Source: Flaccisagitta enflata (Eukaryota). Taken from it: a stretch of DNA of 64,000 nucleotides. Below, piece by piece: positions 9,892-60,361 of the stretch; the first letter of the stretch is position 1; each line of letters begins with the position of its first letter. The stretch lies in the NCBI GenBank assembly GCA_965153355.1, contig OZ231126.1:9796001-9860000 (forward strand). The letters run 5' to 3'. The notes below the pieces were generated by a model. It made no database searches and was not told where the DNA came from. It saw only the letters and a list, made by a program, of their open reading frames with translations. A program made the position numbers and the translations under genes.

Positions 9892-9984
<93 letters not shown>

Positions 9985-13184: not shown

Positions 13185-13207
13185 GGTTTGTGTGATCTAT
13201 GCTGAAA

Positions 13208-14444: not shown

Positions 14445-14468
14445 TGGTTTGTGTGATCTGTGCTGAAA

Positions 14469-17520: not shown

Positions 17521-17887
17521 CTTTGCCACACAAGTCAATCCACCCCTTACAAACACACTTCTTTCCAACGTTTCCGCTTCTTTTTCATGTCCGCTTTTAA
17601 ATTGTTTCAACGGTGAAAAGTTTCAGAAACCCTTTCATGTAGACCGTTAATGGTTCGCTAAACCATTATATTGAGCTAGCCAGGGATAGGCATCTTAGGC
17701 TGAACCAGTTCCAATAGATCTGTTTCAATTCAAACTCAAAGATATTATCATAAAGAAAATAAAATGCATGACAGAACAGCAAATTATAATCTGGAAAATT
17801 TCAGAAGTAACTAAGTAAGAACAAAAGACAAGATTTCGAGATTTATACAAGTGGTAGGGAAGTAAGAAATAAAGTTAAGATGACGTC

Positions 17888-26102: not shown

Positions 26103-26900
26103 TTTTAGTTCTTTTATTTGTTTGTTCGTCTTTTTTCCTCGTCTGCTTTTTTGTTGTTTTTTTTCGTCGACCGATTGTAAATAAAAAGGGAATTTAAAAA
26201 GGATGATAATCGTAATTAATGAATGTCGCGAGAGGTGAAGTAATGGAAGAGGGGGAGAGAAACAAACCTCTTTCACTCAAGAGTGTAAAATCGAAACCGT
26301 TAGAAGAGGGCGGAGGGGTAGGGGGGAACGAAAATTGCTAGTTTTTTTTTTTAAGAAAAAACTTTGACCAGATCAGCAGAGAGTTAGTAGTAATGCCGAA
26401 TGTGAAAAAATAAGCCTTCGAACGCGACCGCACCAAAATCTCTCTAATGCGCGTGAGTTAGCCTTAAGCCTACAACTAAGGGAAGACTCGGAGAGGAAGA
26501 GGAACAGAGGACAATGCAATGACCGAGGTAGAACGAACAAACAATCGAACGAACGAACGAACGAACGAACGAACGAACGAGTGAAGAGGTAAAGGTGGGA
26601 AGGGGTGGAAAATCAAACATTACGTCGAAAATGCCAAGTTTTCGAGTGCTCGCGACGAAAGGGGGGGAGTTGGGACGATGCGGGAATAATAAGAAATATC
26701 AAAGTTACACAACGCGGGTTCATAAAAATCTGAACAGTATCTGGGTCCGCGACGGAAGGGGGTTAAAGATCACCAATTCTGTAAGATCGCTATGACCAAA
26801 AGATTGCTAACCCTGTAAGTTCGCCAAAACTATAAGTCTTTACATTTAGAGCCTCCATACAAAGTTTCATACAAATCCGTTGAAAAATGACAAAGTTATG

Positions 26901-27470
26901 TGAGGTTTTTGGGGACTGCCTACTATGGTATTTCTATGGAAGCTTGGAAGCAACCCACTACCCCCAAAAACTCTCCCCATTGTGCCCTGCATATTTGAAT
27001 GTACTAAATTCCTTTCCCCCTCATTTTGCCCCTTTGTGTGACTCTGTGCCTTGTAGGACTGTGTATTCAATGCCCCTTATCATTGTTGTGACCCGTTGCC
27101 TTACTGTTACATATTCCTGCTTCACATTCCTGTTATATACTCTGAACAGAGATCGCCTTTTTTGCCCTAGAACCTCACCCCAAAATGTATTCCCATTTTG
27201 TTTGTCCTCCACTGATAATATGTCTTCCTCTTCCTCACTCTCTCTGCCCAACTCCTATATAACCGGTCCCTCACCCAAGCTCAATGTTCTTTTTCTGTAC
27301 TACAATTGCTGTTACGCTTTTTGCTGAATGTTTCTATACTTCAACAAATTAAAACGTGTCTCCGCAATTACTTTGTCCTAAGAAAGGGAACCACCGCAAA
27401 CTAACATCCAGTGTAATTCAGTCACACCATAGTCTGTGTCATTTAGCTACGTTTAGCGACACAAACTTTA
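26901..27470 (+). repeat. 5' LTR
   Basis: TGAGG...CTTTA; same sequence as 50233-50802; TATATAA at 27256-62 and ATTAAA at 27348-53. Confidence 0.96.
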
Positions 27471-27472
27471 GG

Positions 27473-27490
27473 TGGTGTCACCGTCGTGAT
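27473..27490 (+). promoter_or_regulatory. Primer-binding site
   Basis: TGGTGTCACCGTCGTGAT starts 2 nt after the 5' LTR; TGG is complementary to the tRNA CCA end. Confidence 0.75.
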
Positions 27491-28845
27491 ATCGTAACTT
27501 CGCCTCCGAAACATTTTAAAATTTTTAAATTTGGGGGGATAATAGAACCAAGTGTTCAAACCTCCAAGTTTAACGCAAAATATACGATAAATTTAAAATC
27601 TTAAAATCTCAAACCTTCGCCAAAAATCCACTCGAATTCAACGCTAACGTCCTAAATCGTTTTGTACAATACGCATTTCCCTGACAATTTTTGCCTATTC
27701 TTTATCGAATCACCTATCATCATTTCAACCGAATCATCTTCGTTTCAATCGAATTATCATCCTTTCAATCGAATTATCATCATTTCAACCGAATCATCTT
27801 CGTTTCGATCGAATTATCATCATTTCAATCGAATTATCTTCATTTCTACCAAATTATCTTCATTTCAATCGAATTACCTGTATTTCCAATTGAATTGTCC
27901 ATTCTTTGCCAAATCATCTGTACCATCGGTAAAGTCGCATGATCCGTAGTCATCACATCTAAATCGTCTCACAATCATCTGTGACTATAGCCCTTGAACT
28001 TATCTGCAACCACCTCTGACTGTATCCGTAATACGCCTTTATTTCTCGCACATTCGCTGCATAATCCCGTATTTCCAACAAAATTTACCTCATCTCTTGA
28101 AATTTTCCGTGACTTCACCCGCGCAAAATCGCCCCAAACCGTACGAAATCAAACAATTCTTTCTTCACTTTTGTCAAACTATCTTTCGCTAATCCGTTTC
28201 TACCTCTCTTCACTCTCTTTGTCGCTTCCTCTCTTCAACCATTCAACCACCAATTTCGCGCTATCGAGTTTAATCAACGAATTAACATCAATCGAATGCA
28301 TCAGAGACAGCAAGGAGGAGGAGTAGGTAAAAACAGATAAGTGGTGCAAAGTCGTCGCTCGTCGCCGCCCGTCGGGGTCGTTCTCCGTGGACAACGCCGT
28401 CGAATCGTCGAGAAACGCCGCCGCTCAATCAGAAACTCCGTCGCACTTCTCAAAGACACCGCCGTTCTTCGAGAAATTTCGCCGTCGTTCACCTCGGTGG
28501 TCGCCGTCGTTCGTCACGATAGTCGCCGTCGTTCGTCACAGTGGTCGCCGTCGTTCGCCGCAGTGGTCGCCGATAGCTGCCGTCGTTCTTCAACATCGAC
28601 GAACGAACTTTTGCCGCCGCCCACCCGTCCGCAACGAACTTTGCTCAGCGCTTCGCTCTAAACCGCCACCAGCGAAGCCGCCAACAACGAACGAAGATGG
28701 AGTCTGTAAGGTAGTGTTAAACCGAAAGAAGAAACCGATTATTGCCGCAGATTCATTCTGTCGCTGTTCCGTTCATATTTATTCAATCTTGCCATTGCTT
28801 AACATATGATTCTCCCCTCCAACGTGGGTTTGCTTTTAAGCTCTA

Positions 28846-31800
28846 ATGGAAGGGGATCCGTGGGATGGGATAAATAAGTTCCTATTAGCAGAAAGGAAAG
28901 AAATAGTAGAGAAGTTTGGTTTTTATTACGACAGGAGATATTGGTTTCTGGTCAAGCCCAGTACCATCAGATCAGGGTCCTTTTTTCCTCTGGGGGGATA
29001 TCGAAGTTTAGGACTGAAGAGCCGATTTGTCGCTCCGGGTGAGACAAAACTCGACAAAAAACCCTTTGATGAGCTTAAAAATTTCAGAAGTAGCCAAATT
29101 TTTGAAATAGCCTCAAAACCGCGTGACAGTTTGAACGGTCCCAACGTTCTTTACTGGGTATATGGTTTTTTTTCTTTTGTCCCAATTTTACGGCCATGCA
29201 AAATCTGTTTGAGGAGAAATGAAAGGAACTGTGATTGCGATACTTTGTTGGTCGCATTCATTGAAGAGTTTCAAGAAGTGGTAAGGCAGAAACAAAAAAA
29301 TATCCATGAGCCATTCACCTATGATTTGAGAAGAAATTTCAACCTTAGGGTAGCTGAGGGCTATGATAAGGAGATACTCCCGGGGCCAGAAAGGCTCACA
29401 GATTATTACTTAGAAGGGCCCCTCATCTTGTCAGACAATATTGCTACCAAAGACGGAAAGCTGATTCCCGCCAAACCGCAAAGCAGAGGAGTGATAGAGG
29501 CATTAAAATCAGTTTTCTCTCACAAAAATGCCCCTGACAGCTCATTCTCTCTGCCCGCAGATTCTTTTGACCGTAATCCAAACGCAAGCCTGTCTGTCAC
29601 ATTGACTAACGACTCCCTCAATGAATCCTCGTTAGCCACTGATTCTCACACCCCTCGCAAAAGCCTTTGTGACGAGATTCACGTGGCAAGTCCTCACCAC
29701 CCCGCAGGCAAACCCTTCACCCCTGACTTATCATCGCCAGATCAGTCAACCCTCACAGCCGATGATATCACAGTAGTCCAACTCCACTCAGACCCCACAC
29801 CCACTCCAGACCTAACCACCCAAACCTCTGATCCTCAATCAAACGAAGATCCTAACCTTCCCGTGAGCGATCCAGTTGAGCCGATCGATAATCCGTTCAA
29901 ATTGACCGGCCTGTCTGCCGACCCTCTGCCTGGTGTTTCAGATCTCGATCCTTCTGTTGATCCGCCCGAGAGTATAAGCACGATGTCCACCATTACCGAG
30001 AGCGTAGACACTGAGACGGGGCAGAAAGGGGAGAAAGAGGTTTGTTATCCAGCAGCGTATTTAGCCTTTTGCTTCTTCTGTAGCGAAGAGCGTATGTTTA
30101 AGTTGGGGCACTGTCCGAAGATGGGATGCGGGATGCCATTTCGCATGGTGCCAAGTCTAAAAACAGATGCAATTCTTGACATAGAACGCTATTCACCCCC
30201 CTTTCCTGCCCGCATGCTGAGTGAGAGTAATGATGAGAGAGAAAAATACGTCTGTCAGGCCCTCTTCAATTCCGATGAACTCAAATTTGAGAACGGATTG
30301 TACGTAGTAGGGAAGAATGCGAGTGACCCGCTCTTGATCAACGCTGCCCGAGTGTTAAGGAACAGGGGCAAGCCGGGTAACTTGGACTCATTTGATGTCA
30401 GTGGGTTAAGCTCAGATGATGTTGTAACGAAGGAAAAAACAAAATTTGTCATTCACAGCTTACAACATAACTTCAACAGACAAAGACTTAAAGAGTATGA
30501 CTCATACTTCAACCTAGACATCAAAATCCTCAACATGATTTGGAACAAAGGGTTCACAGAACTCGGGCCAGTGGGTGAACATGACCTGCCCAGGGGTGTG
30601 TATCTGAGTGAATTTAGGAACCAGGTGGAAAAGGAGCTCACCAAAGGACGAGAAGTCTTTACCAAAATTTTTGATACGGAAAAGTATGATCATGGGTTGG
30701 GCTTCAGATATTGTGCGCACAAGAATGAATTTTCTACCTTTGGGGAAGCCGGTTGGGAAGTAGTTGACAAAACAAAATTGTGGGACCAAAAAACAATCCC
30801 TTTCCTGAGATCATTCAACTGCGGCCCTCGAAGGCTTTATCTGAAACTGATTCTTGACAAGTTCAAAGATCACACACCTGAAGAGCTTGATAACATGGGC
30901 CTCGAACCTCGCAATATCGAACTGATTAGGTTAGAGATCCAAAAAGCACAAGAGATTGACGACAAAAAACTCGAGTTCATGAGACTAAACAAACTGACGC
31001 GCGAACTGGCGCCTATTGACGGAAACCACAAGACGTACGAGCAGTACTTCGAGGCAATACTTAGTAAACACTTGAACAAAAAAATCCTGCCCCCCACTGC
31101 CTCTAAGGCCGACAAAGAGAAAATGCCTGGAGAAAGTGCATATGAGGATTTCATTGACCCCGAAGACATCCACGACCTGCTCAATTTCAGTTATGGTTTT
31201 AGTGCCCAGACAGATAAAACAAGAAAGGCAATACTAAAAAGGGGTACGACCAAACACCGAAACTTGCCATTGACTCGCGATGCTCCAGCAGAAGATCACT
31301 ATGACATGACCGCCCTCGAAAAAAAGGCGCATGAGACCCTCACAGAATACAATAGGAGTCGGGGGGTCGACATAGATAGCATAAGAGAGATACGCGAAAA
31401 AAGAGACCCTTATCGTGAGCCAAAGAACACCTATCTTAAAATCCTTAATGACCATGCCGAGGCTGACCGAAAATCTAACCCCAAGCATTCAACCCCAATA
31501 AGAAAAACGGTCTCGATCGGAAAGCATGGCGATGACGATGACGGTGATGACGATGATAGCGATGACGATGACGATAAGAGATCTAATAAGGAAGATGGCA
31601 AATCTGACGATAGGGATAAGAAAACCCCAGATGACCGAGCAAAATTTGACAATGACTTGAACGACACAGTTAATCCCTTTTTCGCTCCCAAAGAGAGACC
31701 CACCTCTAGTAAGGGGCTGGATAGTAGTCGCGGAGAGACCGTTGGTGACCGCTTATTGAGACTGTCCGGTTCGACCGTTGAACAAACCAAACCTAAAGAA

Positions 31801-34800
31801 GGAGAAGATAAGCCTGATTTAGGACAAGGTCACCACACCAGCGATGACGATGAAGACGATGATCATGATCGCGGTGGTCGAGGCTCAGGTGATCGAGGCC
31901 GCGATGATCGAGGCCAAGATGACCGAGGCCGAGATGACCACGAGCGCGAGCATCGTAAACAATCATCGAGAGATAACCCAAGAGGGGGAAATGGAGGGGG
32001 CGGATATGATGGGGGAGGAGGTGGACATGGTGGGGATGGAGACAATGGGGGAAATGATCGAAGGGGAGGCCGAAAGCCTTGGGAAAAGGGAAACAGCTAC
32101 CCCTATGACTACTCCACCAACCCCACACCATCGCAAAAGGCCGAGCATCATGAATTGACCAAAAGGCTTAAGTTGCTCAGTAAGGATGCCCCAGAATTCT
32201 CACTCAAAGATGATCGGTCGTTCAGAAGCTTTTATTGTGAGTGGAGCTTTCATTTTAGGTTTTTCTTGAAATTGGATGAGGCATCGCTCGTGTACAAATT
32301 TTGCACCAGTTTTCGCGACAGCGAGTTGCGCTTTCAGGTGCAACAAATGAGCACTGCCCATCCAGGGATAAAGGTTAACGCGCTCGCCGCAAAAATTGGG
32401 GCAACATTAGGGTTAGAAAGTACACAACATTATGAGTGTCAGCTGCAAAGGGCAAGCAGAAGAAGGGGTGAACAGGTGGGACTGTGGGCATTCCGCTTGA
32501 CCGAACTCTACAACCACAGTCTTCCCGCCAAAAATTTTTACGAGTTTGTCCACACAGATTTGTACAGGCAACAATTATTTAATTTATTTTGTAGAGGTAT
32601 CAATAATAAATATTTAGTCCAGGAAATGTATAAAAATGAGATAACCGAAATTTTCGCGGGAGTCGCTTTTTGCCAAAATCTCATCGTCTCTGACCAAGTT
32701 TCAGAGGCAGCGGCCAATTTTGGGAAAACTAACAGCAGCCACTCTTTCTCTATGGCTGATGAGGTTAAGCTCCTTACGAGGAAAAATCGCGATTTCAGCG
32801 ATATAAACGCATTGGGATATACTGACAAAAAGGATTACAAAAAGAAAAAAAGAAATGACAATTGCTTTTTGTGCGGGTCAGACAAACATTGGGCGAAAGA
32901 TTGTGCCCTATCCAAATACAAAGATAGAAAAGATGAGGTTTCCTTTATCAAGGTAAAAAAATCACCAGCCGAATGGCGGAATGAAAAAAAGAGGAAAAGA
33001 GCGAAGGAGCGGGTAAACAATCTTAATCTTGAGGTTGTAGAGAAAAGTGACTCGGGGTCAGATAGCGAAGACTCTCAAGCATCGGAGGCAACGGACTACA
33101 GACCGACCGATAGCGAAGGTGAGGCCGAGACCGGAGAGATCAACCATATCGGAGATAAAGCTAATGACTCTGGGTCAGAGAGTGAGAGCGATGAGATAGC
33201 ACACATGGTCAACGCTTTAAACAAAATGCTTGGCAGGAGAAAAGGCGGGAAGGCTGACGATAAAACCAACAAGCCGAAACACAAAAGCAACCGCATATTC
33301 ACTGACGGACCAAGCGACGTACCATGGGTGACTATCCAAGGATTAGCAGATTTTGTGGCCGATACAGGCTCTTCTTTGTCCCTCCTGCGTCCGCATGAAG
33401 TGCCCCCTTCGGCGAAAAAGATCAAAGTCGATGAGTCTATAGAAGGGGCAGATGGGGAGGTGATCAAATTGGAGAATAAAGTGGACCTGTACATTGATTG
33501 CACTAACAAGCAGTACAGATTGACAGACGATAACACAAAACCACTCATTTCGTTTTACATCTGTGCCGAGACAAAGTGTAACTTGCTCTCATACTTTGAC
33601 ATTGCCAAACTTGGAGTGATCATTAATGATGTTAATTTGGGGGGAAAGAGTGACGATGACAATGATTTCGATGACGATGATGAATGCGACATCGAAACAG
33701 TCACGTACACGATAGTAGACAAAACAGTCACGAAGACAGTCACAGCCACAGTCACTGCGAATGACAGCGGACATGACAGCGACGATGACAGTGACAGTGA
33801 GAGTGACAGCAAAAGTTCAAATCAAAATCATTTCGATCGTCTCCCTCAAAGAGAAAGATGGATAGCCAGACAGAAATCAAGACGGACAGTCAACATCATC
33901 GTCAATAACAGTGACAGTGACGATGACAGTGACGATGACAGTGACGATGACAGTGACGTCAGCAGTCAGTCGATCCGTACGCAATGTCCCTCTCTGGAAG
34001 GAAAACAGACGATCAGACAGACATCGAAACATACAACCAACCAAGATTCCTCACCCACTTACTTGACCGATCGCGGAGATCTTGATAAGCGTAATCTTGT
34101 CTCCCACTTGACTGATGTCGGCCGCCGAAATGCGCGGAAGACCGATCCGATGGTCATTAAAAGTGACCGACCACTGACGCCCGCGAATGACCGACCTCTT
34201 GAAAGAGATCGGAATGCCGACTCTCTCTTGCTTCCTCACCCACTATCTCTGACCGCAGCCCTGAAAAGCAAAGAAAAGATCGAGCATAAAGACATTAGAT
34301 CGGTCTCAAAAAGAGATGTAGTCAACCTAGTGAGTGGAATGTTGCCATTTGCCAAACTTCGTGTGTTTAACAAAAAAAATGCCCCTGTCACATCTGGCAT
34401 CTATTTGCAATGCCTCCTTGACAGCGGTTCAACCTTATGTTTGCTGTCAAAAAAATGGCTTGACAAGTCTGGGCTCACTTTCACCCCACTCCCTCACACC
34501 ATTCACGCGTCCTCTTTCACCGGCAATGATATCAACCTATTGCACAAAATTCAGGCCTATGTAGACTTTGGCACGGGGATCAAGAGACCAGTCACCTTTT
34601 TTATCTTTCAAGGTGACAGTAACTATGAGGGATTATTGGGGTATGACTGTCTGAAGCAAAATCATGTGACCCTCGATGCCGCCAATGACTCATTTTCCAT
34701 TGATGGCTTAGCCCACCCGGTGCACCGTTTTGACCTAGCTAATCAAATCAATGCTCTCCAGTCTGAATCGATCAACTTGGAGAAAATCCCCTTAGTGATT

Positions 34801-37800
34801 GAAAAGGGGGTATCGCTTCGCAGGGGTGATTCACTATTCCTGGGGGTAAAATTAGATCTATCCCAAGGAGGCACTGTCAGCTCGGGAGACGTGCTCTACA
34901 TAGAATTTCCCGAGGAGTATGAAAAGATGGGATTAAAGCCAACTGACCGGGTTGTTCAGATTTATCGCCTTAAGCTAAGGGGTGAAGTTTATGGGACGAA
35001 GGTATTTGTGGAATTCCCCAAAACAGCCGAAGTCGATATAATAAACTTACCCACTGACTCTCCTTTCGGCCACCTTTCTCCTTTATTGCCACCCGAACTC
35101 GAGGACGTTGCCAAAGTAAACGAGGCAAGGGTTCTCCACAATGTGTGTTTCGTTGAATCTGAAAGAGAAGCGGAAGAGTTGAGGGCTGGTAATCGGAAAA
35201 AGTGGCAGGCCCTTCATGACCTTTATTACGGGGCCAGTCCTGAGGAGTTGGCCGAATACTTATCAGCAAAAGGGCCAATCGACTTTAACTGCATTATCCT
35301 CTATCTCAAGAGAAGGCAACTATCTGCCGAGGAAAGGGAAGAGTTGAAGAAGGTTCGAAAGGAGAGAGCAGAATTTTGGACCTATGATGAGATTTTGACT
35401 CACTTTAAGGATCAAATTTCTAAAGTACCCGCTCAATTCAAACAAGACGTCATCAATTTGCTGTATGAAAGGAGGGGTGCCTTTGCGGGAAAATCCAGCC
35501 ACTTGAGGGTAGGGACAATAACCTGGTGTCTCGATGCTATTTATCCACGCGAATTGCAACTGCAAGTGCGTGCCAAACCCGTAAGCGGGCTGAAAAAGCT
35601 CATCACCAATCGCTTACAAAGGATAATGATGGATAGTGGGATCATTGAGCCGGCGAAGGGTAGGCCCGCAGCTTTACACAGGTTCCTTGTTGTACTAAAG
35701 CCTCAAGACAAAGTCAAAAAGCCAGTTGACAAGGCCTCTCTAGATGCCATGACAACGGCTGAGTTAGAAAAATGCTTTCGATGTGTCGTCGACTCGAGTA
35801 ACTTGTCATCTATGTTGTATAAGTCACCTCATCCCGACCCTCCCACCATTTTCCAAACATTGGGGAAAGTAGAATGCGACACTCTCAAAACTTGTGCTGA
35901 CCTCAAACGGGCATATGACCAAACCCGTGCTACAGAGGCTGCAAAGTTGTTGTTTGCATTTGAAACCCAGCTCGTTGGCATACCCCTTGCCGTTTTGAGT
36001 TCCATCCCCCAGGGTTGCCCGGAGGGATCTCGCATCAACCAACGCGTGAGTAGTCACGCGGTGGAGCGGCAAAATAACATACCTGCCAATCTCAGTTTTG
36101 ATGAGTTCAAGGTTGCGTATCGCAAACTTGACGATGACGAAATTGCTGCAGAAAAGCAATGTGCGTTGCGCCGGCGACGCGAAGAGAGAGCCCGGATGAT
36201 CGATCATCGAAGCGAAGGGAGAGAAAAGGATGATGAGGAGGAGTCCTCCTTCGAAAAGCAGGAGAATCGAGCGAAGAAGGAGAATTCCGAGGAAGGAGAG
36301 AAGAAGACGATCGGTCATCGGAAGTCGGTCAAGAGAGAGAGAGAGAGCGAGCATAATGGTATTGGTCGCGAGGTCTTTTTGGAGTCGCTCCAATTGCCAG
36401 TGACCACTGATCCTGACGCCCTCGATAACATGATTGTCAAAGGTTTGTCAACGGGCCCACCTGAGAAAAGGAGAAAGCTGATTTGTGAGAATTCAGCCCA
36501 TGTATACGCTGACGATATCATGGTGCAGTCTCCGACCGAAATTGACCGCATTAAAGAGCTTGAGATTGAGTCTAAAGCACTGCCCCGTCCTGCTCAAAAC
36601 GATAAGGAACTGCCTATCCTGCTACACTTGGCATTCCTCAATAGGGTACTATACTGCCTAGAGGAGGCCAATTTTTTGCTCAGTAGCACAAAAATCAACA
36701 TTCTGTGCCACCTGGAGGGTTTTGAGTACCTGGGCTTTAGCTTCAGGGGGAATATTATTTCCATAGCTCAAAAAACTATAAGTACTATCCAAGCCTTGCC
36801 AGACCCCAAAACCCTCAAGGAGACACAAAAAATCATCGGCATGACTGTCTATATAGGGCAGGTGATGCGCCATGGACGCATCATGACCGGTTTCCTCAGT
36901 GACAAGCTAAAGAAAGGCGTGACCTTCAAATTTACCGATGACGACAGGGAGAAATTCCAGAGGCTCAAAGACTTGTTATGTCAAGTTCATATGAAAGGGT
37001 ATCTTTACGCTTTAGACACCAATGTGAAAGACAAGACATTTATTTTGTACAGTGACTGGAGCTATGTAGTGCACAGCTCCAGTTCTTGCCTTCTTGTAAA
37101 ACTACACACCAAGGAGGGTACCACTGTCCTACCCGCTGTCTCTGACTCTCGCTCGCTCGTTGACTCTGTCCGCTCAAAAGGTTCGACCATCTGTGAGATG
37201 GCCGCCCTCGTAAGTTCACTCCAGCACCTTAGACCGATCCTCTTCCTTGCCCCGTTCATTTGCTACACCGACAACATTGCGCTCCAGTTCCTGATGAACC
37301 GGCGCTTTGCTACCAATGTGGCTTTGGACTCGACTGTGGCTCAGAGGCTGCTCCTATCGGTCAATGACCTATTCTTTCAATGTCGCTATGTGCCCTCTGA
37401 GCTACAACTCGCAGATGGACTGTCCAGGATCAAATTAGAGACAGGGAAGACCGTTGACCAACTCCTTACCAATTCAAATAAAATCACGGATTTCGACTAT
37501 GTCGAGCGTATGGTCAGACCAAACAAAGCGGACGAAAATGAGTCTCAGTTTCTAGAAAGGGCGGAAAGAAACATTGACATGATCCGCCGACTAGAGACCG
37601 AGGCCGGGGATACAAGGGGGGATTTGTACCAACTCTTCAGGAAAACCCACTTCAGTGTGAAAAACAAGGAAGTGCTCAGTCTGACCGACCGCCCGATCTC
37701 ACCTCTTGAAGAAGTTGACCCCCAGACCAAGCTTGAGACCGACGATAGTCCTCCACGGTCGATCGGTTTCTTTGATCAGGAAAATGAGGGCGGGCTAATG

Positions 37801-40539: not shown

Positions 40540-41337
40540 ATTCGAGTCTGCATGTTTTTTAGGATAGTGTACAGTGTATAGTGTTTAACCTGTGTACAGA
40601 ATCAACCAATTTATTCTAAAGAATATATGCCAAATTTGAATCGAGTGAATTTAATTGACGTCCGATTTAACATAATGAAAAATCCACAACACTGCAAACG
40701 GGTCGAACGTAATTGTTTTTTAAATCCACTTAGGGCGAGTGTTAGCGAAATTACATGTGTCTACGAAAGACATGGGCGTTTTGCAAATATTGCATGGGTG
40801 GAAATCCGATGTCGCTTAACAAAGAGACCACTCCTTTGGGTACGCGGCGCGGAATCCTGACGTTGATGAGTTTGTTTATTTGGTTGAGCTTGGGGTACGG
40901 AATCTGTCCACGACCATGGCAATAGTCGCAAGAGAAGGTTGTGTTGCGAATTTGAAGTAGGATGCCGAAAATGACCGTGTTGAACCGATAATCCCCGTAT
41001 CCTTGCCTGGAATAAGAGATTAGGTCAATTATTCAGAAAGAGAGAAATGGCTATTTGATCGATCGAATCAGATCAACCGAATCATTCATCGAGTCGAATG
41101 AATGAGATGGTTGGTGTGACAAGATCTGACCGATCCGACCGGTTGACCGATTTGACCGATCATCGCTCAGTAACGATGATAAGTTTGATATAAAAACAAG
41201 ACACTCATCGATGCTAGTACCATTTCGATTCAATCTTACAATCAAGCAATATTCCAAAAAATACATACGATCAACCAAGTCATTTTTCACATGCTATATG
41301 ACAAACTGTTTCAATAACTTTTTGTGAAATAGCGAAA

Positions 41338-41904
41338 ATGGCCGACAACAACAACAACAACAACAACGAACAACAGCGTCAACAACAACAAATCATCACT
41401 GAATGCTCGCCAACATTCTGTGCATGCGATCCCAATTTGGATCGCTGCCAACAAGGATTTTCAAACAACAGATCCTTAAATTGGGCTGAGTCAGCCCATA
41501 ATTTTCATCTATATCGCGTTCAACAACGAATTGACGCGTCAGTACAAAATGCCTACCATGAGGAGTCCACTTCCAACATCAGAAGACACCTCATGGCTAG
41601 CCGTTTCACAACCGAGCAAAATCCCGCTTCCATGTGGGGACGGTACCAAAGAAACGCGCGGGTAGCTCGAGAAAACTCAATGTTGTCCAGTCGAAGACCG
41701 ACCAACACTGCCTCTCGCCCCTTCGGCATTTTGGTACCGGAGCAGGCTGCCGAAAGGCCCTTATTACATCTAGCAGCTCTGCAAGGCCAAGACCATCTGG
41801 CCAAAGACCATGAACTCGTCTGTCGCCACGAAATTGGCTATTGCATTTCGGGCGACTCAGACAGCAATCATTCATTCGAACAATCACGCAAAAGACAAAA
41901 ATAA
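41338..41904 (+). CDS. Element-internal 188-aa ORF, unknown function
   Basis: ATG in AAAATGG context; N/Q-rich start, CSPTFCACDPNLDRC and HELVCRHEIGYC Cys/His clusters; no recognised family. Confidence 0.55.
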   Translation: MADNNNNNNNEQQRQQQQIITECSPTFCACDPNLDRCQQGFSNNRSLNWAESAHNFHLYRVQQRIDASVQNAYHEESTSNIRRHLMASRFTTEQNPASMWGRYQRNARVARENSMLSSRRPTNTASRPFGILVPEQAAERPLLHLAALQGQDHLAKDHELVCRHEIGYCISGDSDSNHSFEQSRKRQK

Positions 41905-41978
41905 TCACTTGTTGTAGCATCTGTAAATATCGTTGTACTAGCATTGATGATAATCTTTGTCGATGTAGATATCGTTCA

Positions 41979-43289
41979 CTAACGTTCATGAATAAATAAA
42001 CCCAACTTAAACCAACTGAAGTGTTTAACTTTACAATAGATTGACCGTTCGTCCTCTCACCTAAAAGCTTGGTGGACGGATTTGAGAGCGTGCTGGCAGG
42101 CTGAACCGATGGCCAAATTAACGTCAGAACACCCGATGCATGCGTAAGGAAGACCTTTAGAAATATAACAAAATTTCCAAACGAAACAATCTTGCATAGT
42201 AATTTTAGGCTGCAATATAATCTACCTAATTTACCACTACTTACCACTATAATAATCGGCTGGGTAGATTTCCCACACTGACGGTCCGACCAGAGCGATG
42301 TGTTCGACGTAAAATTTGATCGCACAAAAAACGAGATCCTCGTAGTAAGCAATCCCGATTATCATGAGAAGCACCATGATCCCTGGCACGACCGGGTCGA
42401 TGGTGATGAGTGTGACCACGCAATAACCCCCAATGACACCAAGGAGGGTTTTGCCATGCTCTGCGAATGAATGAATGAATGAATAAGTGAATGAATGAGT
42501 GAATAAATGAATGAATAATATGAATGAATGAATGAATGAATGAGTGAATAAGTAAGTGAATGAATAAATGAATGGATAAGTGAGCTAAGGAATGAATAAG
42601 TGAACGAATAAATGAACGAGTGAATGACCGAATGAATGAGTGAATGAACGATAAATGAATGAATAAATGAACGAATAAATGAATGAATGAGTGAACGAAT
42701 GAATGAATGAATGAACGAATGAGCGCATGAATGATAGGTGATCAAATGAATGATTAAGAACGAATCCTGCCTGAAGAGATGAAGCGAATCAGTTCCAAAA
42801 TTAGAACGTAAGCGGTGAACTGGCCCAGAGGATACTGCTTGAGACGGAAGTTCCACCAAATAGCATTCAAACGGGGAAACGATAGCAGGGTTTCTGATAA
42901 AGATTTACGAGGATTTGGCATGTAAAACTATATATATATCAATTCTAGGCCGATCAGAATTCACATAAAACGACAAAGCACCGCAGAATCTCACCCGTGT
43001 CGATTTCGTCCTCCTCGTCTTTTTCTTCTTCGTCCGACGTGTACATGGAACTGTCGTCGTCGTCGTCGTTGTCGCCGTCGTCGTTTTCGTTGTTGCCATC
43101 ATCCACTCGGCGACGGACGCGTCGTCCTTGGCCGTCGCCGCCGTCACCAACGCTTTCACCATCATTCAAACGACGGATTCGTCCGCCACCACCGTTGTCG
43201 TTGTCAATCGCGTAATATCCCTCCGCCACAACGTTCCTGTCACCAGACCCGCTAGTTGACGACACGTTAGCATCACTTGAATCCTCCAT
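41979..43289 (-). CDS. Antisense spliced element gene B, 254 aa: acidic N-terminus plus hydrophobic region; exons 43289-42995, 42893-42771, 42460-42245, 42154-42061, 42015-41979
   Basis: Five exons join in frame (765 nt incl. stop); one intron needs a GC donor (CAG|GCAGG at 42770), the rest are GT-AG. Confidence 0.65.
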
Positions 43290-44029
43290 GTCGACTTATG
43301 TCCGATTTCTGATAAATAGTAAGATTTCTTTTAGCGAGCAAAAAATTCTTTTTTGGGCGAGATTTTTGTAGAAAAATAAACGGTCCACAGATTAAGTGAC
43401 TGACCGGGCTGGGGGGAATTGACTAAATGAGCAACAGGGGGGAAGAAGAGCTGGGAAGAAGAACATAAAATTTTTTAAATTTCAGGAAGAGCAGCCCTTA
43501 CCTCTTGACTCATCGCTGGATGAGTTGCGTGGCCGCCTTCCCACACCCTTGTCTCCTCCCATCACCGGAAGAGGCTCAGGGCAATACCACTTAAGAATCA
43601 CTTAAGAGTCACTCAAGATTCAGAGTCAGTGAATCGATCGAACAATCGTGTCGAGCAGTTTGTTTTTGGAATGTTGCTCAAGTAGTCAATACATTCTGCC
43701 AGTTTGGTTCTGTCTGAAAAGTTAATTGAAACATATATATATATATATATATAAAAAAAACTACAGGAGGTGGCCTGACTGGCCAACGGCTCCCGTCTAT
43801 CTACTCTCTCTCTCTTTCTCTCTTTCTCTCTTTCTCTCTTTCTCTCTCTCTCAATTTCAATCATGATTCAATCATCTTTATCATCCTCAATCGTATTCAA
43901 TCATCTTTTTCTTCCGTCAAACTTCAATCATTTTCATTATCATCGTCATTTTCAGTCATCTTTTCAAGTCTCTCTTTTCCTCGTCAGTCCATCTTTTCTT
44001 CTTTCTTTTTCTCCTCTTCCTCCTCTCCT

Positions 44030-45531
44030 TTAGACGGGGGTCTCGCGGCCCATCTGGTCGCTGTCGCCGCCGTCGTTGTTGTCGTCGTCGCTGACGTGAC
44101 TGAGGGTGGGCGGCGCCGGAAGCCTCTTGGCCGCCGCCGCCTCGAGGTCGCGCCTCGCCACGTCGCCTCCCACGAGGTTGGCGAGGATCCCATCGGTCGT
44201 ACTATTGAATAGAGATATCAAAATATATAATTCCTGACCAGGGCAGGCTAGATAAAATGACCTCGCCCCCCCACTCATCCACTCACCTCATCGAGTAAGT
44301 GTTGGAGGAAGCGGCCGAGGATCTGCCAAAGAAATGAGATCGCCATAAGCACAGATAAGAGTGACCATCGGGTCTCACCCTCACACTCCAACAAGCCACT
44401 TATTTTCCTACTCACCTCCACAATAATACCCGCTCCCACACGGACCGGGGGTGGCTGCCCCTCCTTCGATAACAGCGAATCACTGAAAATGGGGATTTAA
44501 GGTCAAACTCAGACTAGGAAGTCATCATTCAAATTGTAGGCATGATTTGGTTAACACTCACAGAATACACTTTGGTGAACTTACTCTCTGCTGCGGTCAC
44601 CCCCGAGGCCAAAATGATGGCCAGCATCGCAACCGCGATCAGGATATAACTGTAAAAAGAGAAAAGCCCCTCTTAACACCCATTCATGACTTTCTAAGGT
44701 CTCTTGTTTGTTGAGCAAATTCTCAAAGAGACCATAAAACAGGTATGCGACGTTGTCGACTCTTCTGGATGTCGATAACTATCAATTTTGATAGACTTAA
44801 GATCATTTGAACCTAATTGACCTTTCTCAGCATTGTCTACATTTAAAGATGGTACTGTTCGAATTAGCCATGTAAGTAAGTTCTTTACCCTAATCGCCTT
44901 GTCTCTTCAGAGATTGTTATCTGTGTCAGTCCGGTGTGAGTTATGTTTGCTAATATTTCTCCTGAGACATGACAAAATATTTACAACCATATGCAAATGA
45001 GATTCAAGCGTGCACCTTAAAATTTAGCAATCAAAACTTACGCCCAAGTAGGGAGCGCCGAGGCCGGGGCTGCCGGTGGATCCTGCTCGGGGGGGGTGGC
45101 GGTGGTGTTGGCGCCTACCAACACCTCCATCACCATCGTCGCCGCCGTTGTTGTCGCCCCCAGACAACGCCTCGCGAGGATCGCCGGGTCTCTGTTTAGG
45201 ACATAAATGAATATTCCTTAATATCTTTATCTTTTTAACATTCTTTAACATTCTTTAACATTTTTTAACATCTTCTTAACATTCTTTAACATTCCTTAAC
45301 ATTCTTTAACATCCTCTAACATCGTCTAAAACATTTTAATATTCCTTACTATGCTGACCGACCGACTGACATGACCAACTAAAATCCAAATATTCCACCA
45401 TCAGACCGACTGACCGACTTTACTCACCTAGAGCCATAAGATGAGGCAGCCAACCGGAGACAATTGACTTCTACTGCCGACAGTGACGACCGACCGACGG
45501 ACGCCATGACTGACGTGACGTTGATGAACAT
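44030..45531 (-). CDS. Antisense spliced element gene A, 197-aa single-pass membrane protein; exons 45531-45428, 45191-45042, 44649-44585, 44482-44416, 44322-44287, 44201-44030
   Basis: Five introns all with GT(A/G)AGT donors and YAG acceptors, phases consistent (594 nt incl. stop); TM WAYILIAVAMLAIILASGVTAA then IRCYRRR; C-terminus ETPV. Confidence 0.85.
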
Positions 45532-45619
45532 GACTGCTTACGACGACTTTTTGACCGACGAACTGACGCGCTGACAAGTCCTTAGGCCCGACGTAGATTA
45601 AAATTCACAACACTTCCGT

Positions 45620-45895
45620 CCGACCAACCGACTTGCCGACTAATAAAATGAACGAGACTCGCCGACGATCGACTGACTTTTGCCGACTGATAAAATGAAC
45701 GAGACTCGCCGACGACCGACGGACTTTGGCCGACTGATTAAAATTAAAAGAGACTTGCCGACGACTGACTGACTTTAGCCGACTAGATAAAACTGGAAGA
45801 CGCGCCGACGCACTGACGGACCGATGCCGACGTAAAATAAATTAAAATCTCTGGACTCGCCGACGAGACTAACAGACTGTCCGACGATAAAATTA
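45620..45895. repeat. Degenerate ~47-bp tandem repeats inside the element
   Basis: About six copies of GCCGACT(A/G)ATAAAATGAACGAGACTCGCCGACG..., just upstream of antisense gene A. Confidence 0.8.
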
Positions 45896-46364
45896 GGAAT
45901 AAAAACTCTAGGACTTAAAGCACGTAACCTGCAAAGAGGAAAAGAAGTGAGAAGGAATAAAACCCTCAACTTAGGACCGCCTTTTTGACACTGACGATCC
46001 TCAAAATTCTTCTCACTTTCAAACATAAACAAATCAAGCCTTGAGGGCTTACGAGACTGAGCTCTCAAGAGGGGTGGGTTTTTTCTTAGTCAACATGTCG
46101 ACGTTCTTTTCTTACCACCCGACAAAAATATCAAGCAAAGCAATGGTACACTAGTGAGGGTAGAGTGGTAGGACCTGCAAAAAATGATAAGGCATGAGCT
46201 TGGGTTCAGGCATGAACGCTGCCCATTTAAAATTGGACGCTCAGGATTATCATTACTTTACCCGCTGGTGTGGGGTTTTTTCAGTCATGGTTTTCACCCA
46301 ATAGTAAAAAGACTAGGCTTAGAATTGTGCTTGAACAATCACCCAAATCACTAGGCTTGGAATT

Positions 46365-48887
46365 GTGCCCCAACAATCACCCAAATCTCAAGATGCGTTG
46401 AAACTACTCATCTTAACAACCACTTCTCTGTTCTCCCCTCCTCTCTCCGCCCCTGACTGTTCACTTCGTGTGTGTTCTCTCTGTCCGATGTCTGGCCCAC
46501 AAATCTGTCAATCTTACAGAGCGAGGAGAGAAGAGGCGAGAACGAACGCAGAAGTCCTCAAGCGCGTGCTCTTTCTAATATTCTTCTTCAAGATTGTTCA
46601 ACCGAGTGCTGTCACTATTAACATCCCTGACCCTCGGGCTCCCTGCATTAGTTTAGAAATGGCCCTGCCCATTGTCAAAATACAAAATTCACCCCCCTCG
46701 ACTCTCGATATGAGCTTTGATTTTGATATAAAGACCCTGTATTCTCAAAGGTACGGGCAAAAGGCCCCCACTAGTGATAATCATAAAGAAGTGTTTAAAT
46801 GCGCCACTCAGGTTGGGGAAGAAATATCCAAATTGATAGACTCTTTCATTTTACGTGTCATTGACTTGATTGAACTCAGACAGGAATCTTATTTGACCGA
46901 TGGGGAAAATTACAATGACGCGGACAAACAGACCAACAAACCTCGCCGTCGCGAAACCAGAAGTGGGATGAATCCTCGCTCGAACAGATCATCTCATGGT
47001 TTGTCCGAGGGAGAAAAATCTCATCTTCGAGAAGCGATAGAGCTGACAAATGAACAGTGGTCGTTTTCTGACCACTGGCTTGACGAACAGATTAGGAGCG
47101 ACCTCTCGGGGGGGACAAATTCAACTGAGTTTGGTGACATCAAAATTAGGAACAAAAGGGATCCCGCGACATTCATAAGTATTGTCATATCTCTTATCGC
47201 GTTGACAGCTACGGCGTCAACCAGTCTGTTCCTCGGCGCGCGTCTGGAAAAACTGGTTGACTATGTAGACTCATTAAGCAAAGCCGTTGAAGGTGATTGG
47301 CAATCAATTCAAGTAGGATTCAAAAATCTGATTTTATTAAAGGATGGATATGGTTCCATGGCTGCCGGCGCTCATTACATGAGTCAAACCATCCGGCGCC
47401 TACTAGAATATAATTTATGTCACATACAACAAACTAGACTCTTTTTCGAGATGAGAGCGATTGCCAACCGCCTTGACGGCATTTTTGAAAGCTTGGTATT
47501 AGGAAAGTTCAGCACTAAGATTCTCCCTCTACCACTCCTTAAGGAAATTTTCTCCCAGAGTTCGATCGCCGATGATGTTTTGAGCAAAGCTGTTCCGACC
47601 TCGTTCTATCAAGGGGCTAGTCTGTCTGTCCTCTCTGCCGATCGAGCTAAAAAGAGCGTCCGTCTAATATTTGTCGCACCACGCATCGAGCGAGAGCCGA
47701 GTTATCGAGTTTTGAAAGTACACTCTGTTTCATCAACTATATCCGTGAATGGCCGCATCTTTGACCGAGTTTTCTCTTTCGATGCTGACAAGATTGCTAT
47801 CCCGATCGATCTCTACGAAAAACATCACGATGATATGATCTTATCTGCAGCGGAGGTGCAGCAATTACGCATCCCGACCGAGTGTAGCTTTACCAACGGT
47901 CTGTTTGGATGTAGGAATTTTCTCTCTCTCCCAAGTCAGGTTTCATCGTGTCTCGCAGCTGTATTCGCTAGAGATTGGCCGAAGATGCAGTCCCAGTGTC
48001 GGATCAGAATGATCCCTCAGGCCCATCATCACCCAGTGTCCACTAGTTCAGGTTCCACGGGGATGTTACTTAGCTGCGTTTCTACTTACCGTCTGTACGG
48101 AATTGATCACACAAAATCAAAACACTACCAGAGAGAGGATTTAACCAAGATGGCCACCCGTGACGCATCAACTTCTTTGTGCGTCTGGGTGCCTTTACAC
48201 TTTAGTAAAATTCAAATTTTGGACGATCAAGGAAATAGACTAGATGAAATTGAACAGGATACCAAACTTATGATCAGGAATGGGTTGGTAAGAGACATAA
48301 CTGATTACGAAACTAAACATTTCCACTATTTCCAACGACAAGTTACAATGGACAACATGAGTCTTCTCAACTTTACTGGTCATTACGAGGACATTAATTC
48401 ACATTGGGGAAATATTGGCAAGCATGATCTGCCCGTTTTTGATATGAATGAAGAGCGTAAGATTTTCCTTGAGATTGGACTGGCCGTTGTAGTTGCGTTC
48501 ATCCTATGTTTGTATTTGGCCAAACTTGCGATGTGTCTGAGACGAAGGTACGCCCGTCCAACTGCCGGCCAGGCTGGTAGAGCCCGAGCTCAAATCACTT
48601 ATGCCCGCTCCGCCTCTCCGACGGTTACTCTTAACCTCCCACCAGCCTTGCCCCCGCCAAATCCTAACCGCCAAAACGATTCCCAAGATGATGATCTAAC
48701 CGAACCCAAGGATCGTCGCCCACGAGGCTTGAATCCCCCCTCGCCGACCAGTCAAGTGAGCTTTGTCGAAGATTGCAGCGGTTGTCCCGATCGCGATCCA
48801 ATCTTTGACCCCCGCGATTTTGTTGGTCGCGAGAGTCATCCTCCACAGACGCTTCCTCCCAAACCAGCGCGTGTGCAGACCACCTAA
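46365..48887 (+). CDS. env: Envelope glycoprotein, class I fusion-protein architecture (first ATG 46488)
   Basis: Hydrophobic VLFLIFFFKIV, furin-type RNKR (47148-59) followed by hydrophobic DPATFISIVISLIALTATASTSLFLG, heptad-like LEKLVDYVDSLSKAV, Cys-rich ectodomain, TM IFLEIGLAVVVAFILCLYLA (~48462-48521), Pro-rich tail. Confidence 0.88.
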   Translation: MPQQSPKSQDALKLLILTTTSLFSPPLSAPDCSLRVCSLCPMSGPQICQSYRARREEARTNAEVLKRVLFLIFFFKIVQPSAVTINIPDPRAPCISLEMALPIVKIQNSPPSTLDMSFDFDIKTLYSQRYGQKAPTSDNHKEVFKCATQVGEEISKLIDSFILRVIDLIELRQESYLTDGENYNDADKQTNKPRRRETRSGMNPRSNRSSHGLSEGEKSHLREAIELTNEQWSFSDHWLDEQIRSDLSGGTNSTEFGDIKIRNKRDPATFISIVISLIALTATASTSLFLGARLEKLVDYVDSLSKAVEGDWQSIQVGFKNLILLKDGYGSMAAGAHYMSQTIRRLLEYNLCHIQQTRLFFEMRAIANRLDGIFESLVLGKFSTKILPLPLLKEIFSQSSIADDVLSKAVPTSFYQGASLSVLSADRAKKSVRLIFVAPRIEREPSYRVLKVHSVSSTISVNGRIFDRVFSFDADKIAIPIDLYEKHHDDMILSAAEVQQLRIPTECSFTNGLFGCRNFLSLPSQVSSCLAAVFARDWPKMQSQCRIRMIPQAHHHPVSTSSGSTGMLLSCVSTYRLYGIDHTKSKHYQREDLTKMATRDASTSLCVWVPLHFSKIQILDDQGNRLDEIEQDTKLMIRNGLVRDITDYETKHFHYFQRQVTMDNMSLLNFTGHYEDINSHWGNIGKHDLPVFDMNEERKIFLEIGLAVVVAFILCLYLAKLAMCLRRRYARPTAGQAGRARAQITYARSASPTVTLNLPPALPPPNPNRQNDSQDDDLTEPKDRRPRGLNPPSPTSQVSFVEDCSGCPDRDPIFDPRDFVGRESHPPQTLPPKPARVQTT

Positions 48888-50215
48888 GAGAAATGTTAGT
48901 CCAAATCTGCTGTCAACTCATTTGCATATTGTGGCATTTCATTCGTTGACACGACTTACCAAAGATCAAAACCATTTCCACATCCATGACTTTACCCACT
49001 CTTCAGCTCGCTAGCACCATTATCTAACCATTTTAACAACCAATTAGCTCTGTTTTCTTTGTCCGTCAGTATGTACGTGATGTGTGCCCTGTATCACACA
49101 GATAGATGTTTAGATAGATGACTGTCGCCCCGAATTGAATATACCTCAATATCTGAATCTGTGCTTGCTTTCTTAAGAAAGAACGTCATATTCCTAATAT
49201 TCCTTTTTCTGGCTATGACCTCCTTAGGACCTCACGGTTCTAGCTACAGGAAGGTCGCCTTGTAACAAGCTTAGATAGGGCTCCCAATGATCCTAGCTCG
49301 ATCAACAATCCTAGCTCGTTCGGGAGCCAGTTGAAATGTTCATGTTAGTGAATGTTGAAATCCAACCTTATTTGCATATTGCCGTCCTCTAAAATATTTG
49401 ATCCAGATGAGATAAAGACTTAGAATTTTTTCATTCATTTTTTCCAATGGCCACGAATCACGAACCTCAGATAGATCATTTTTTATGACTCAAAAAATTC
49501 TTATCGGGATGATCAGTTTGATTTTTACTACTGTTCTTCCTGTATCTTACATTCAGTATTGACTAAAAATATATAATTCCAAAATCATCTATCTCCTACG
49601 TTCGTGTATCCCGCACTGATCCTATCCAGTGTCTATCATTTGTGGCCAAGGCCTCCTAAGAACATTAAGGTTCTAATCTTGGATGGCCGCCTTACAAAGA
49701 CTTAGTCTGTACGATTGAAGTGATCGTGTCTGAAGAATGAAGACCTAGCCTCATTAGCATATTGCAGCGAGTTGTTGCCCCCCGACAAAAAGTGTCGGAT
49801 TAAAATTTTATCGCTTCGCGAATAAGCCTACCCTAGCGTAATTAGGAAGGTTTTTTATTTTGAGGGGACCTTAATAAAAATTTGCCAACTATAATCAATT
49901 TTTGTTGCCCGGATTTTTCCATTTATAATTTTTACTTGTGTGTGACCGAAATCATTATGCCGTTGAGAAAAATCTTTTAATCAAAACGAGTTCTGAAATT
50001 CCGTTAATAGCATATTGGCGCGATTTATGGGCAACGGCCACCCTGGAATCTTTGATTCTAAACCGGGAAGGTCGCCTTGAAATGTTAGTTAGATACAAGC
50101 TTGCATGTATATGCTTGAGACTTAACTTCCATAATTTTGAAGTGAATAGAAAATACAAAAATTTTTTTGCGGAAACTTTAACTCTACTTTGAGCTGGGGG
50201 GACAATGCCGGGGTC

Positions 50216-50232
50216 AAGGAATTGGGGGGATA
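50216..50232 (+). promoter_or_regulatory. Polypurine tract
   Basis: AAGGAATTGGGGGGA-TA immediately before the 3' LTR. Confidence 0.75.
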
Positions 50233-50802
50233 TGAGGTTTTTGGGGACTGCCTACTATGGTATTTCTATGGAAGCTTGGAAGCAACCCACTACCCCCAAA
50301 AACTCTCCCCATTGTGCCCTGCATATTTGAATGTACTAAATTCCTTTCCCCCTCATTTTGCCCCTTTGTGTGACTCTGTGCCTTGTAGGACTGTGTATTC
50401 AATGCCCCTTATCATTGTTGTGACCCGTTGCCTTACTGTTACATATTCCTGCTTCACATTCCTGTTATATACTCTGAACAGAGATCGCCTTTTTTGCCCT
50501 AGAACCTCACCCCAAAATGTATTCCCATTTTGTTTGTCCTCCACTGATAATATGTCTTCCTCTTCCTCACTCTCTCTGCCCAACTCCTATATAACCGGTC
50601 CCTCACCCAAGCTCAATGTTCTTTTTCTGTACTACAATTGCTGTTACGCTTTTTGCTGAATGTTTCTATACTTCAACAAATTAAAACGTGTCTCCGCAAT
50701 TACTTTGTCCTAAGAAAGGGAACCACCGCAAACTAACATCCAGTGTAATTCAGTCACACCATAGTCTGTGTCATTTAGCTACGTTTAGCGACACAAACTT
50801 TA
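50233..50802 (+). repeat. 3' LTR
   Basis: 570 bp, no differences from the 5' LTR seen by eye. Confidence 0.96.
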
Positions 50803-55920: not shown

Positions 55921-55952
<32 letters not shown>

Positions 55953-58848: not shown

Positions 58849-60361
58849 GATTGGTGGTTTTGTTGTAGTTTTTTTGTTTCTTATGATAAGTGCGAAGCGA
58901 TTCAGTGGTTCCCCACAGGTACAAATACTTTTTAATTCCAATACCTATCTTTCTTTATTTTCTTTGTTAACAGCCGAGAGTTATTTTCCAAGTGAGAGAG
59001 TGCCATTTTCACACAACTTTAGCTTCCTTTTCATGCGCAAAAATAAAATCTTCTATTTCTTGAAAATCTATCACAGACGGCTTTTCATTCTTTATATTGG
59101 TCATGCTTCGTCACAAAGTTTCATCCTTGAAATGGGATTACAGAAAATTGATTTTAAAACCAAAAAGGCTAAAAGCTGCAACAAATACAAAACGATTCAC
59201 GCGGCAGTAACGCAACAAAAAACTTAGCTAAAATCATCGCCCATCCCACTGGCAGACCAAAGGAGGTGAATCACCACGCACCAAACGCGATCATAGACAC
59301 AGTGAGAGTGACAACTGACCAACTTTTGGTTTTGTCAGCTTATGTCGACATGTTAACAAGTCGTTTCAATCTGTGCATATTCATCAATCACCAAGTCCCA
59401 TGGAAACGAAGCCGTGATTCAGTTTTAAGTAACCAACAAGATCACTAATTTGTCAAGAAAAGTTAACTACCACCAATGAAAGAAGATTCATTTGATTTAT
59501 CAATCACTTAAAGTGGTTTTGATTTAAGGTTTTTTCAGTGGGTCTGTTTTTGGTCGGGAAGGGTCTGAAGAGAGAGAGGTATATGAGATCATCAGCCACC
59601 ATCTAAACGTGACATGTTTAAGTTACATGGCCTAGTCACTACGTAAGCGAATTTTTGAGATTGTATCACAAGTGGTTGGAAAGTTATCACAGTTCACAAA
59701 ATATTAATAACAGGACCCTCGTCCAATAATAAGTATCGAGACCAAGCGATGACGGCGGAGGGAAACCGTTTTGGGTGGAAAATGCCACTGTTTTCCAGAA
59801 TCGTCCACGTCGAGCGCATAAGAAATCAAAACAATAAAACGCGATTCGGGCGGCCAAACCAACCAAGAGCAATGGGAATCAAAACTTTTCTAAAGCGAAA
59901 TTTTAACTGGCAACCACAGTCCACCAAAGAGACAATATCTCGCCCGAGAGAATGATCAGAAATGACAAGAAATAAGGTCGCAAGAAAATCATCCAAAACA
60001 AAAAGCATTTCACCGCGTTGAAGTAAACATAGCCTTAGAAATGGCACAGATATCAGGTACAGTAAAGGTAAACAAAATTCCGGGGTTAATGAGGTCCTCT
60101 GTCGTCACAGTCATCACCATGAAGTAAAGGCACCAAATCTCAAACCTTGGTTAGCACCAGGTCATAGTCGATAGTCCTAGACCATCACCAAGAAAAAAGG
60201 CCATTCACCATCATCACCAAGAGGATTGACACTAGGATAGCATGGCATCAGAATAGCATGGCGCTATAGCAGCGGCTTTGACATTTTTGAGATTCGGAAT
60301 TCTTACAGGAGCCCCAATTTTTACCTCAAAAGTTTCCCCTCCCCCACACGTCTCCCCTTCC

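Follow-up and report, generated by a model that had tools for sequence, protein, structure and literature searches.

Does the 24-kb element at positions 26901-50802 of a 64-kb stretch of the Flaccisagitta enflata genome (contig OZ231126.1, positions 9,796,001 to 9,860,000; the whole stretch is hereafter called the window) represent an intact retroelement and, if so, is it the 'complex retrovirus'-like Ty3/gypsy element with env and accessory genes that an earlier note on this DNA had proposed? Self-comparison of the window delimits a long terminal repeat (LTR) retroelement of ~24 kb flanked by two LTRs of 570 bp (26901-27470 and 50233-50802, both on the plus strand) which, described in that note as identical-looking, align without a single mismatch. 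The target site duplication (TSD) is as clean as had been claimed: TATG stands on both sides (26897-26900 and 50803-50806), its 5' copy inside a 143/162-bp satellite unit and its 3' copy directly before a 305-bp satellite array, and among the five satellite units listed at 51089-51699 four have a single TATG at the insertion position and one has TACG. The identical LTRs and the 4-bp TSD, a length within the range of 4-6 bp given for Metaviridae (PMC12440569), show an integrase-type insertion, and the element is real, intact, and very young. The satellite itself (305 bp, 143 + 162) surrounds the element, at 26813-26900 and 50803-51766.

The sequences needed for an LTR-driven cycle are also recognizable. 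Each LTR has TG...TA termini, and the 5' copy includes a TATA-like box at 27256 and an ATTAAA signal at 27348. A candidate primer-binding site (TGGTGTCA, 27473-27480, plus strand), a TGG-starting motif 2 nt past the 5' LTR, may match tRNA-Leu, and a polypurine-tract-like stretch (50216-50232, plus strand) directly precedes the 3' LTR. Tracts of six G resembling the latter occur at 27533 in the leader, at 43411 in the accessory region, and at 50196 just upstream of the polypurine tract, and are possible extra plus-strand primers. No tRNA genes were found within the 64-kb window, and no Rfam families in 26800-43900, the part scanned. Two features sit less comfortably with this picture: its termini are not TG...CA, the usual form in Metaviridae (common though not universal), and it contains 18 sense AATAAA motifs.

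Gag-pol was said to be uninterrupted, and it is indeed encoded by a single unbroken open reading frame (ORF) of 11.7 kb (28846-40539, plus strand; 3897 aa). Pfam searches with the whole protein recovered protease (PR), reverse transcriptase (RT), RNase H (RH), and integrase (IN) in the gypsy order, every match under the curated cut-offs; with cut-out pieces, the Gag zinc knuckle (CX2CX4HX4C, 32863-32904) was also detected and the integrase zinc finger reached its cut-off. The order PR-RT-RH-IN between LTRs is that of Metaviridae. The RT and RNase H region (35521-37425) retains the YADD motif, the RT catalytic residues D2352/D2556/D2557, and the complete RNase H D-E-D-D set (D2737/E2784/D2809/D2857), and the integrase (38743-39945) retains both HHCC and D-D35-E (D3388/D3463/E3498), so that the presence of all these residues and of those of the protease, together with the unmismatched LTRs and the TSD, upholds the description of the element as intact and very recent. 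A charged insertion of ~105 aa (36166-36480) in the RT palm before YADD occurs in the query only among seven aligned lineage members.

Several traits of the polyprotein went beyond the earlier note, namely tandem proteases, a long N-terminal extension, and the degree of RT divergence. The extension (28846-32145, ~1100 aa) lies ahead of Gag; residues 1-800 of the polyprotein have no Pfam match, and residues 80-195 and 401-765, with one Cys cluster each, align with a relative, P0043. As for the proteases, the sequence indicates that the polyprotein carries two separate retropepsin domains. PR2 (34372-34665, DSG at residue 1859) has a Pfam retropepsin match, and the ESM features of the retropepsin-like PR1 (33328-33645, DTG at residue 1506) match those of retroviral proteases (RVP) at 0.93, ten of ten family matches falling in one clan; P0043 likewise has two D[TS]G motifs, 747 residues apart. 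Against a second protease speak the lack of any Pfam match or meaningful PDB sequence match for PR1, the sharing of only 150 of 256 ESM features, and an E value of just 0.027 in its pairwise alignment to P0043. Neuropilin matches in the PDB searches with PR1 and with env (E 1.6-1.7) were rejected as not meaningful.

The gypsy-like character claimed for the element holds, supported by the domain order and by a best PDB match to Ty3 RT, and its position appears to be deep. When the RT-RH region was used in an exhaustive HMMER search, 918 matches were obtained at E <=0.001 and 14 at E <=1e-30; seven of the ten top long matches that were looked up are unnamed ENA proteins, and the other three come from a pseudoscorpion and are gypsy polyproteins of the ordinary kind. 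We built an RT tree from the query, six hand-picked lineage proteins, and 29 ordinary gypsy RT-RH sequences, the latter selected from the 144 remaining listed matches by a motif filter that required a complete ordinary RT-RH. The query and its six unnamed relatives are separated from the 29 gypsy sequences by a branch of ~1.7 changes per site with 100/100 support, in a tree that is unrooted, subject to a long-branch warning, and built without retrovirus, caulimovirus, Troyka, Bel, or Tor sequences. The profile of the lineage matches Ty3 RT best among PDB entries (E 7.7e-21), the next RT, at ~1e-15, being one that we take to be the gammaretroviral, MLV-type enzyme, and later matches presumably being foamy and caulimoviral enzymes. 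Given the Ty3 match and the long separating branch, the RT sequence places the element as gypsy-related and deep.

P0043 is a 4066-aa single ORF with about 25-29% identity, and its collinearity with the query runs from the N-terminal extension, both Cys clusters included, to the integrase; it and P0190 lie on ENA contigs of 14-15 kb. P0058, P0060, and P0073 are more distant members, pointing to a broad unnamed lineage. A search with the full-length polyprotein gave no match among 6055 candidates, a blank that reflects a limit of sensitivity since HMMER later recovered P0043, and no relatives were found in viral_contigs and the JGI metagenomes. Among env-bearing LTR retroelements this one is a new structural variant, and its lineage is probably undescribed.

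Downstream of pol, the env gene (46488-48887, plus strand) encodes 799 aa from its ATG; the 2.5 kb previously given for it corresponds to the stop-to-stop reading of 850 aa. The protein has an N-terminal hydrophobic segment, an RNKR furin site, a fusion peptide (residues 229-247), a transmembrane helix (659-677), and a Pro-rich tail. Its ESM features match clusters of the paramyxovirus F protein (Fusion_gly) at 0.93, with 203 of 256 shared, and in its sequence features it is an F-type class I fusogen-like protein resembling paramyxovirus F, even though no Pfam match and no meaningful PDB sequence match were obtained. Relatives form five clusters at 56-99% identity, and the furin arginines and seven Cys are invariant in all six sequences compared (57-99%); in the closest cluster, with 31 members, ten of the 15 listed are full length at 98.4-99.5% and five are partial.

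Between pol and env, ORF3 (41338-41904, plus strand) encodes a 188-aa protein with a Cys cluster, an Arg-rich composition, and a basic C-terminal end, preceded by a TATA-like box 149 nt upstream (41189) and followed by AATAAA 87 nt downstream (41991). Eleven of its 13 matches are in-frame homologues, at 50-96% identity and in 11 protein clusters: ten align over 90-100% of the query (50-96%), a further one (55%) is partial, and the remaining two are frameshifted copies. Down to 50% identity the homologues keep the Cys motif, a MASR-like core, the basic end, the length, and the start, and of 42 further members, drawn from three clusters, 39 measure 181-189 aa, in line with the expectation that extra genes would be kept in other copies. 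Judging by this sequence conservation, ORF3 is a conserved gene; it has no matches outside unnamed environmental clusters, and a match to DUF1365 (E 0.034) was rejected. The leader has no strong splice donor which, together with the TATA-like box, favours an internal promoter for ORF3. Weighing against the picture of one element with linked extra genes, the ORF3 and env homologues come without genomic context, which leaves their linkage on one element in relatives a presumption, and folds are uninformative, as the AlphaFold models of ORF3 and env (predicted local distance difference test scores of 47.0 and 32.5, respectively) are too poor for a fold search.

The earlier note counted three extra genes between pol and env. 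ORF3, on the sense strand, is confirmed by its conservation, while the two others, antisense and spliced, are predictions with moderate support, scored with a generic splice matrix. Predicted gene A (44030-45437, minus strand) comprises exons 45437-45428, 44961-44889, 44649-44585, 44482-44416, 44322-44287, and 44201-44030, or, alternatively, starts with a single first exon (45136-45042) that replaces the first two. Its five or six exons, separated by four or five GT-AG introns of 85-466 nt, would encode 140-144 aa with an N-terminal sequon, one transmembrane helix, and the C-terminal end ETPV, which we take to be a PDZ-type motif. Predicted gene B (42057-43289, minus strand) comprises exons 43289-42995, 42893-42771 (with a GC donor, or skipped), 42460-42245, and 42154-42057, and its 202-243 aa product would combine an acidic N-terminal half with a hydrophobic hairpin. 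A GAAT microsatellite sits in a gene B intron. Farther upstream on the same strand, an exon-like stretch (43713-43502), with a strong donor at 43501 and a (TA)n tract upstream, may be the 5' untranslated region or promoter of gene B. Two other models were discarded: a 250-aa antisense ORF (41606-42358), whose 5' part shifts frame among variants, and a gene A first exon (45200-45042) joined to 44961, which contains stops.

It could be argued that only the element and ORF3 are real and that these antisense genes are chance chains of splice sites in a long non-coding spacer holding promoters and packaging signals. Several observations agree with this view: an antisense gag-pol control tile scores 34.9, nearly as high as gene A (38.1); gene B ranks only tenth of 178 tiles; strong donors on the minus strand are mildly enriched at best (11 against 6.9 expected, 21 of 300 nulls reaching that number), acceptors not at all (110 of 300); no AATAAA was found on the minus strand close to the stop of either gene; and neither gene has an unambiguous 5' end, while one B intron needs a GC donor. 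Nevertheless, gene A ranks first in both unbiased window tilings (of 168 and of 178), and the chain scores of A and B (37.3 and 29.4), for regions picked after inspection, exceed the maxima of 150 Markov shuffles each (22.2 and 23.3). The composition also differs between exons and introns (GC of 0.60-0.66 against 0.39-0.42 in A, and 0.52 against 0.31 in B), and the predicted transmembrane helices fall on predicted exons. In addition, the variant P0221, which is read in a different frame over exon B2, has four visible differences, and in the proposed frame all four are synonymous third-position changes (baseline 0.33, p ~0.01), a test that rests on one variant. At exon B1, 15 variants stay in frame as far as the predicted donor and immediately after it diverge into two frames, a pattern biased by the 90% clustering. 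Taken together, we consider chance chains unlikely; gene A is probably a real antisense intron-containing gene and gene B, slightly less surely, is likely to be one as well, their splicing being predicted.

The 40.5-46.3 kb block might instead be passenger DNA, made up of fragments captured from host genes or of a nested insertion, playing no role in the cycle of the element. Host-like introns and microsatellites within the block would agree with such an origin, and gene capture between pol and env has been described for LTR elements (PMC6431247). Yet ORF3, devoid of matches beyond the environmental clusters, is conserved in length, start, and Cys motif even among homologues of 50% identity, env and the RT pieces show identity ranges similar to those of ORF3, and no internal repeat of at least 40 nt was seen inside the element except short tandem arrays, all of which makes a mere passenger improbable. 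An assembly artefact, by collapse of the LTRs or as a chimera of separate elements, is more improbable still: collapse could yield zero mismatches, but hardly an exact 4-bp TSD in a satellite unit with empty neighbour units or correctly placed primer-binding and polypurine motifs. Moreover, exact accessory-region ORFs are present on other contigs, and four metagenome runs from one marine study contain 0.50-0.55 of the sequence words in the stretch 40.6-50.2 kb, exceeding the 0.40 share occupied by env and the 3' untranslated region (word shares <0.2 in this run index were not used). Besides these four, the runs sharing most of this DNA were two from a single organism, possibly the source, and the index listed no RNA run with words of the element.

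We therefore favour, with reasonable though not strong confidence, an autonomous, env-bearing LTR retroelement, active in recent times, whose lineage in marine animals is deep and Ty3/gypsy-related, and we propose for it the following expression scheme. A genomic RNA of ~23.4 kb, from LTR to LTR, would be translated into one Gag-PR1-PR2-RT-RH-IN polyprotein, in which the two proteases may pair within one chain or share out the Gag and Pol cleavages, and reverse transcription would be primed by a tRNA. Env and ORF3 would each have a separate mRNA, most likely started at an internal promoter as in Tor3b/4b, given the leader and the ORF3 TATA-like box described above. By analogy, ORF3 may be a nuclear RNA or transcription regulator with a Rev/CERV-like role, and A and B may be small membrane proteins that act on the membranes of host cells; the roles of these three genes and of the second protease are proposed by analogy only. 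The introns of A and B could persist thanks to their antisense position, since splicing of the genomic RNA would be unable to remove them before reverse transcription, an orientation that fits what established retroelement biology leads us to expect for intron-containing cargo. Env would carry particles between cells, for example from soma to germ line. A bolder reading, which we put forward only tentatively and regard as rather doubtful, is that animals of the marine plankton harbour reverse-transcribing viruses forming a branch of family rank, with enveloped particles, an RNA of ~23 kb, two different proteases, and an independently evolved complex-retrovirus toolkit consisting of a nuclear regulator and multi-intron antisense genes for host-modulating membrane proteins.

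Complex Retroviridae, such as HTLV-1 with HBZ and HIV-1 with Vpu, possess a sense regulator, antisense spliced gene(s), and small transmembrane accessory proteins. Our element resembles them in its putative sense regulator, in its predicted antisense spliced genes and small transmembrane proteins and, presumably, in the PDZ-type C-terminal end of gene A, but differs in its F-type env, its RT nearer to Ty3, and its single, catalytically complete RNase H. The dual RNase H, an inactive tether plus a new RH, is described as a feature of Retroviridae, lokiretrovirus, and Odin (PMC9040795, PMC12440569); here, the RH that follows RT keeps D-E-D-D and no second one was found by Pfam in the polyprotein. 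By this comparison the element falls outside Retroviridae, and 'complex retrovirus' fails as a statement of membership and survives as an analogy. Neither is it a Troyka element as described (CG...CG termini, 3-bp TSD, CX2CX8-10HX4C, and no env; PMC12440569), given its TG...TA termini, 4-bp TSD, CX2CX4HX4C knuckle, and env.

Among elements with env, it shares with the ancient errantiviruses of PMC13524379 the gag-pol-env order, an F-type env located 3' of pol and carrying a furin site, a fusion peptide, and a transmembrane helix, and a recent multi-copy behaviour, and is set apart by its tandem proteases, 5.9-kb pol-env gap, and 11.7-kb gag-pol. According to that survey, F- and gB-type env are widespread in invertebrate gypsy elements; its filters (pol-env distance <=1 kb, each region <=10 kb) would exclude a 24-kb element with such a gap and gag-pol. 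The words 'accessory' and 'antisense' are absent from its main text, to which this comparison refers, and relatives could be among the 1512 elements listed in its supplements. Compared by description, Tor3b and Tor4b of Oikopleura dioica (PMC4402516) are likewise divergent gypsy-related elements of marine plankton, with a furin-cleaved env glycoprotein and a pol-env spacer; their env is reported to be expressed from an internal promoter, and extra or antisense protein genes are not mentioned in the text available. Burro (GYPSM1) of planarians (PMC6431247) also exceeds 20 kb and has a giant polyprotein (4873-5140 aa) and an env homologous to paramyxovirus/baculovirus F. In Burro, as described, env lies in frame between gag and PR, Gag is N-terminal, and BIR, MATH, ankyrin, and BCL2 cargo is present, whereas the present element has env as an ORF of its own on the 3' side and Gag behind the 1100-aa extension, and none of that cargo was detected by Pfam.

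Regarding the extra genes, Cer1 of C. elegans, with its regulatory accessory protein CERV for genomic RNA export (PMC10309623), offers by its description a model for ORF3, although CERV is made from a spliced Cer1 mRNA. The plant elements Retand, Grande, and Ogre share the large size and the antisense extra ORFs 3' of pol; in the portions available, these sources (PMC7264820, PMC6431247) mention no F-type env, the word 'intron' is absent from the former, and the size of Ogre is owed largely to its LTRs. Extra or regulatory ORFs have accordingly been described for Burro, Ogre, Retand/Grande (antisense), rotifer elements, and Cer1 (PMC6431247, PMC7264820, PMC5408684, PMC10309623) so that, F-type env being widespread too, the uniqueness of the complex genome proposed earlier is smaller than implied. 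No literature was found on tandem or duplicated proteases or on multi-intron antisense genes in env-bearing LTR elements, in a coverage outside which most subscription papers and Repbase lie. The layout is unlike those of the described invertebrate elements with which we compared it, as set apart by their descriptions.

If this interpretation is correct, retrovirus-like complexity (regulators, antisense spliced genes, and small membrane proteins) would have arisen in an invertebrate gypsy-related lineage, and an LTR polyprotein would be able to hold two proteases stably. Surveys with 10-kb filters would have overlooked a lineage of env-bearing elements of 20 kb and more, which would provide natural tests both of how large an RNA retroelements can package and of the rule by which retroelement introns persist only on the antisense strand.

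The surroundings of the element in the window contain genes that, from their sequence, fit an animal host: an SDE2 C-terminal domain (17888-18871), an EH-domain gene (55626-58944) that is presumably REPS-like, and a PH-domain protein (60362-62638). The region 8018-17622 contains pieces of a P-loop NTPase gene (weak NPHP3_N match), which we assume to be NACHT-like, in three repeats with 300-nt blocks up to 98-100% identical, as well as an inverted repeat of 290 nt (9067-9356 and 12687-12976); these repeats may reflect a duplication in the recent past or fragments of immune genes carried by a transposon. An 11-bp satellite of ~220 copies occupies 3485-5956.

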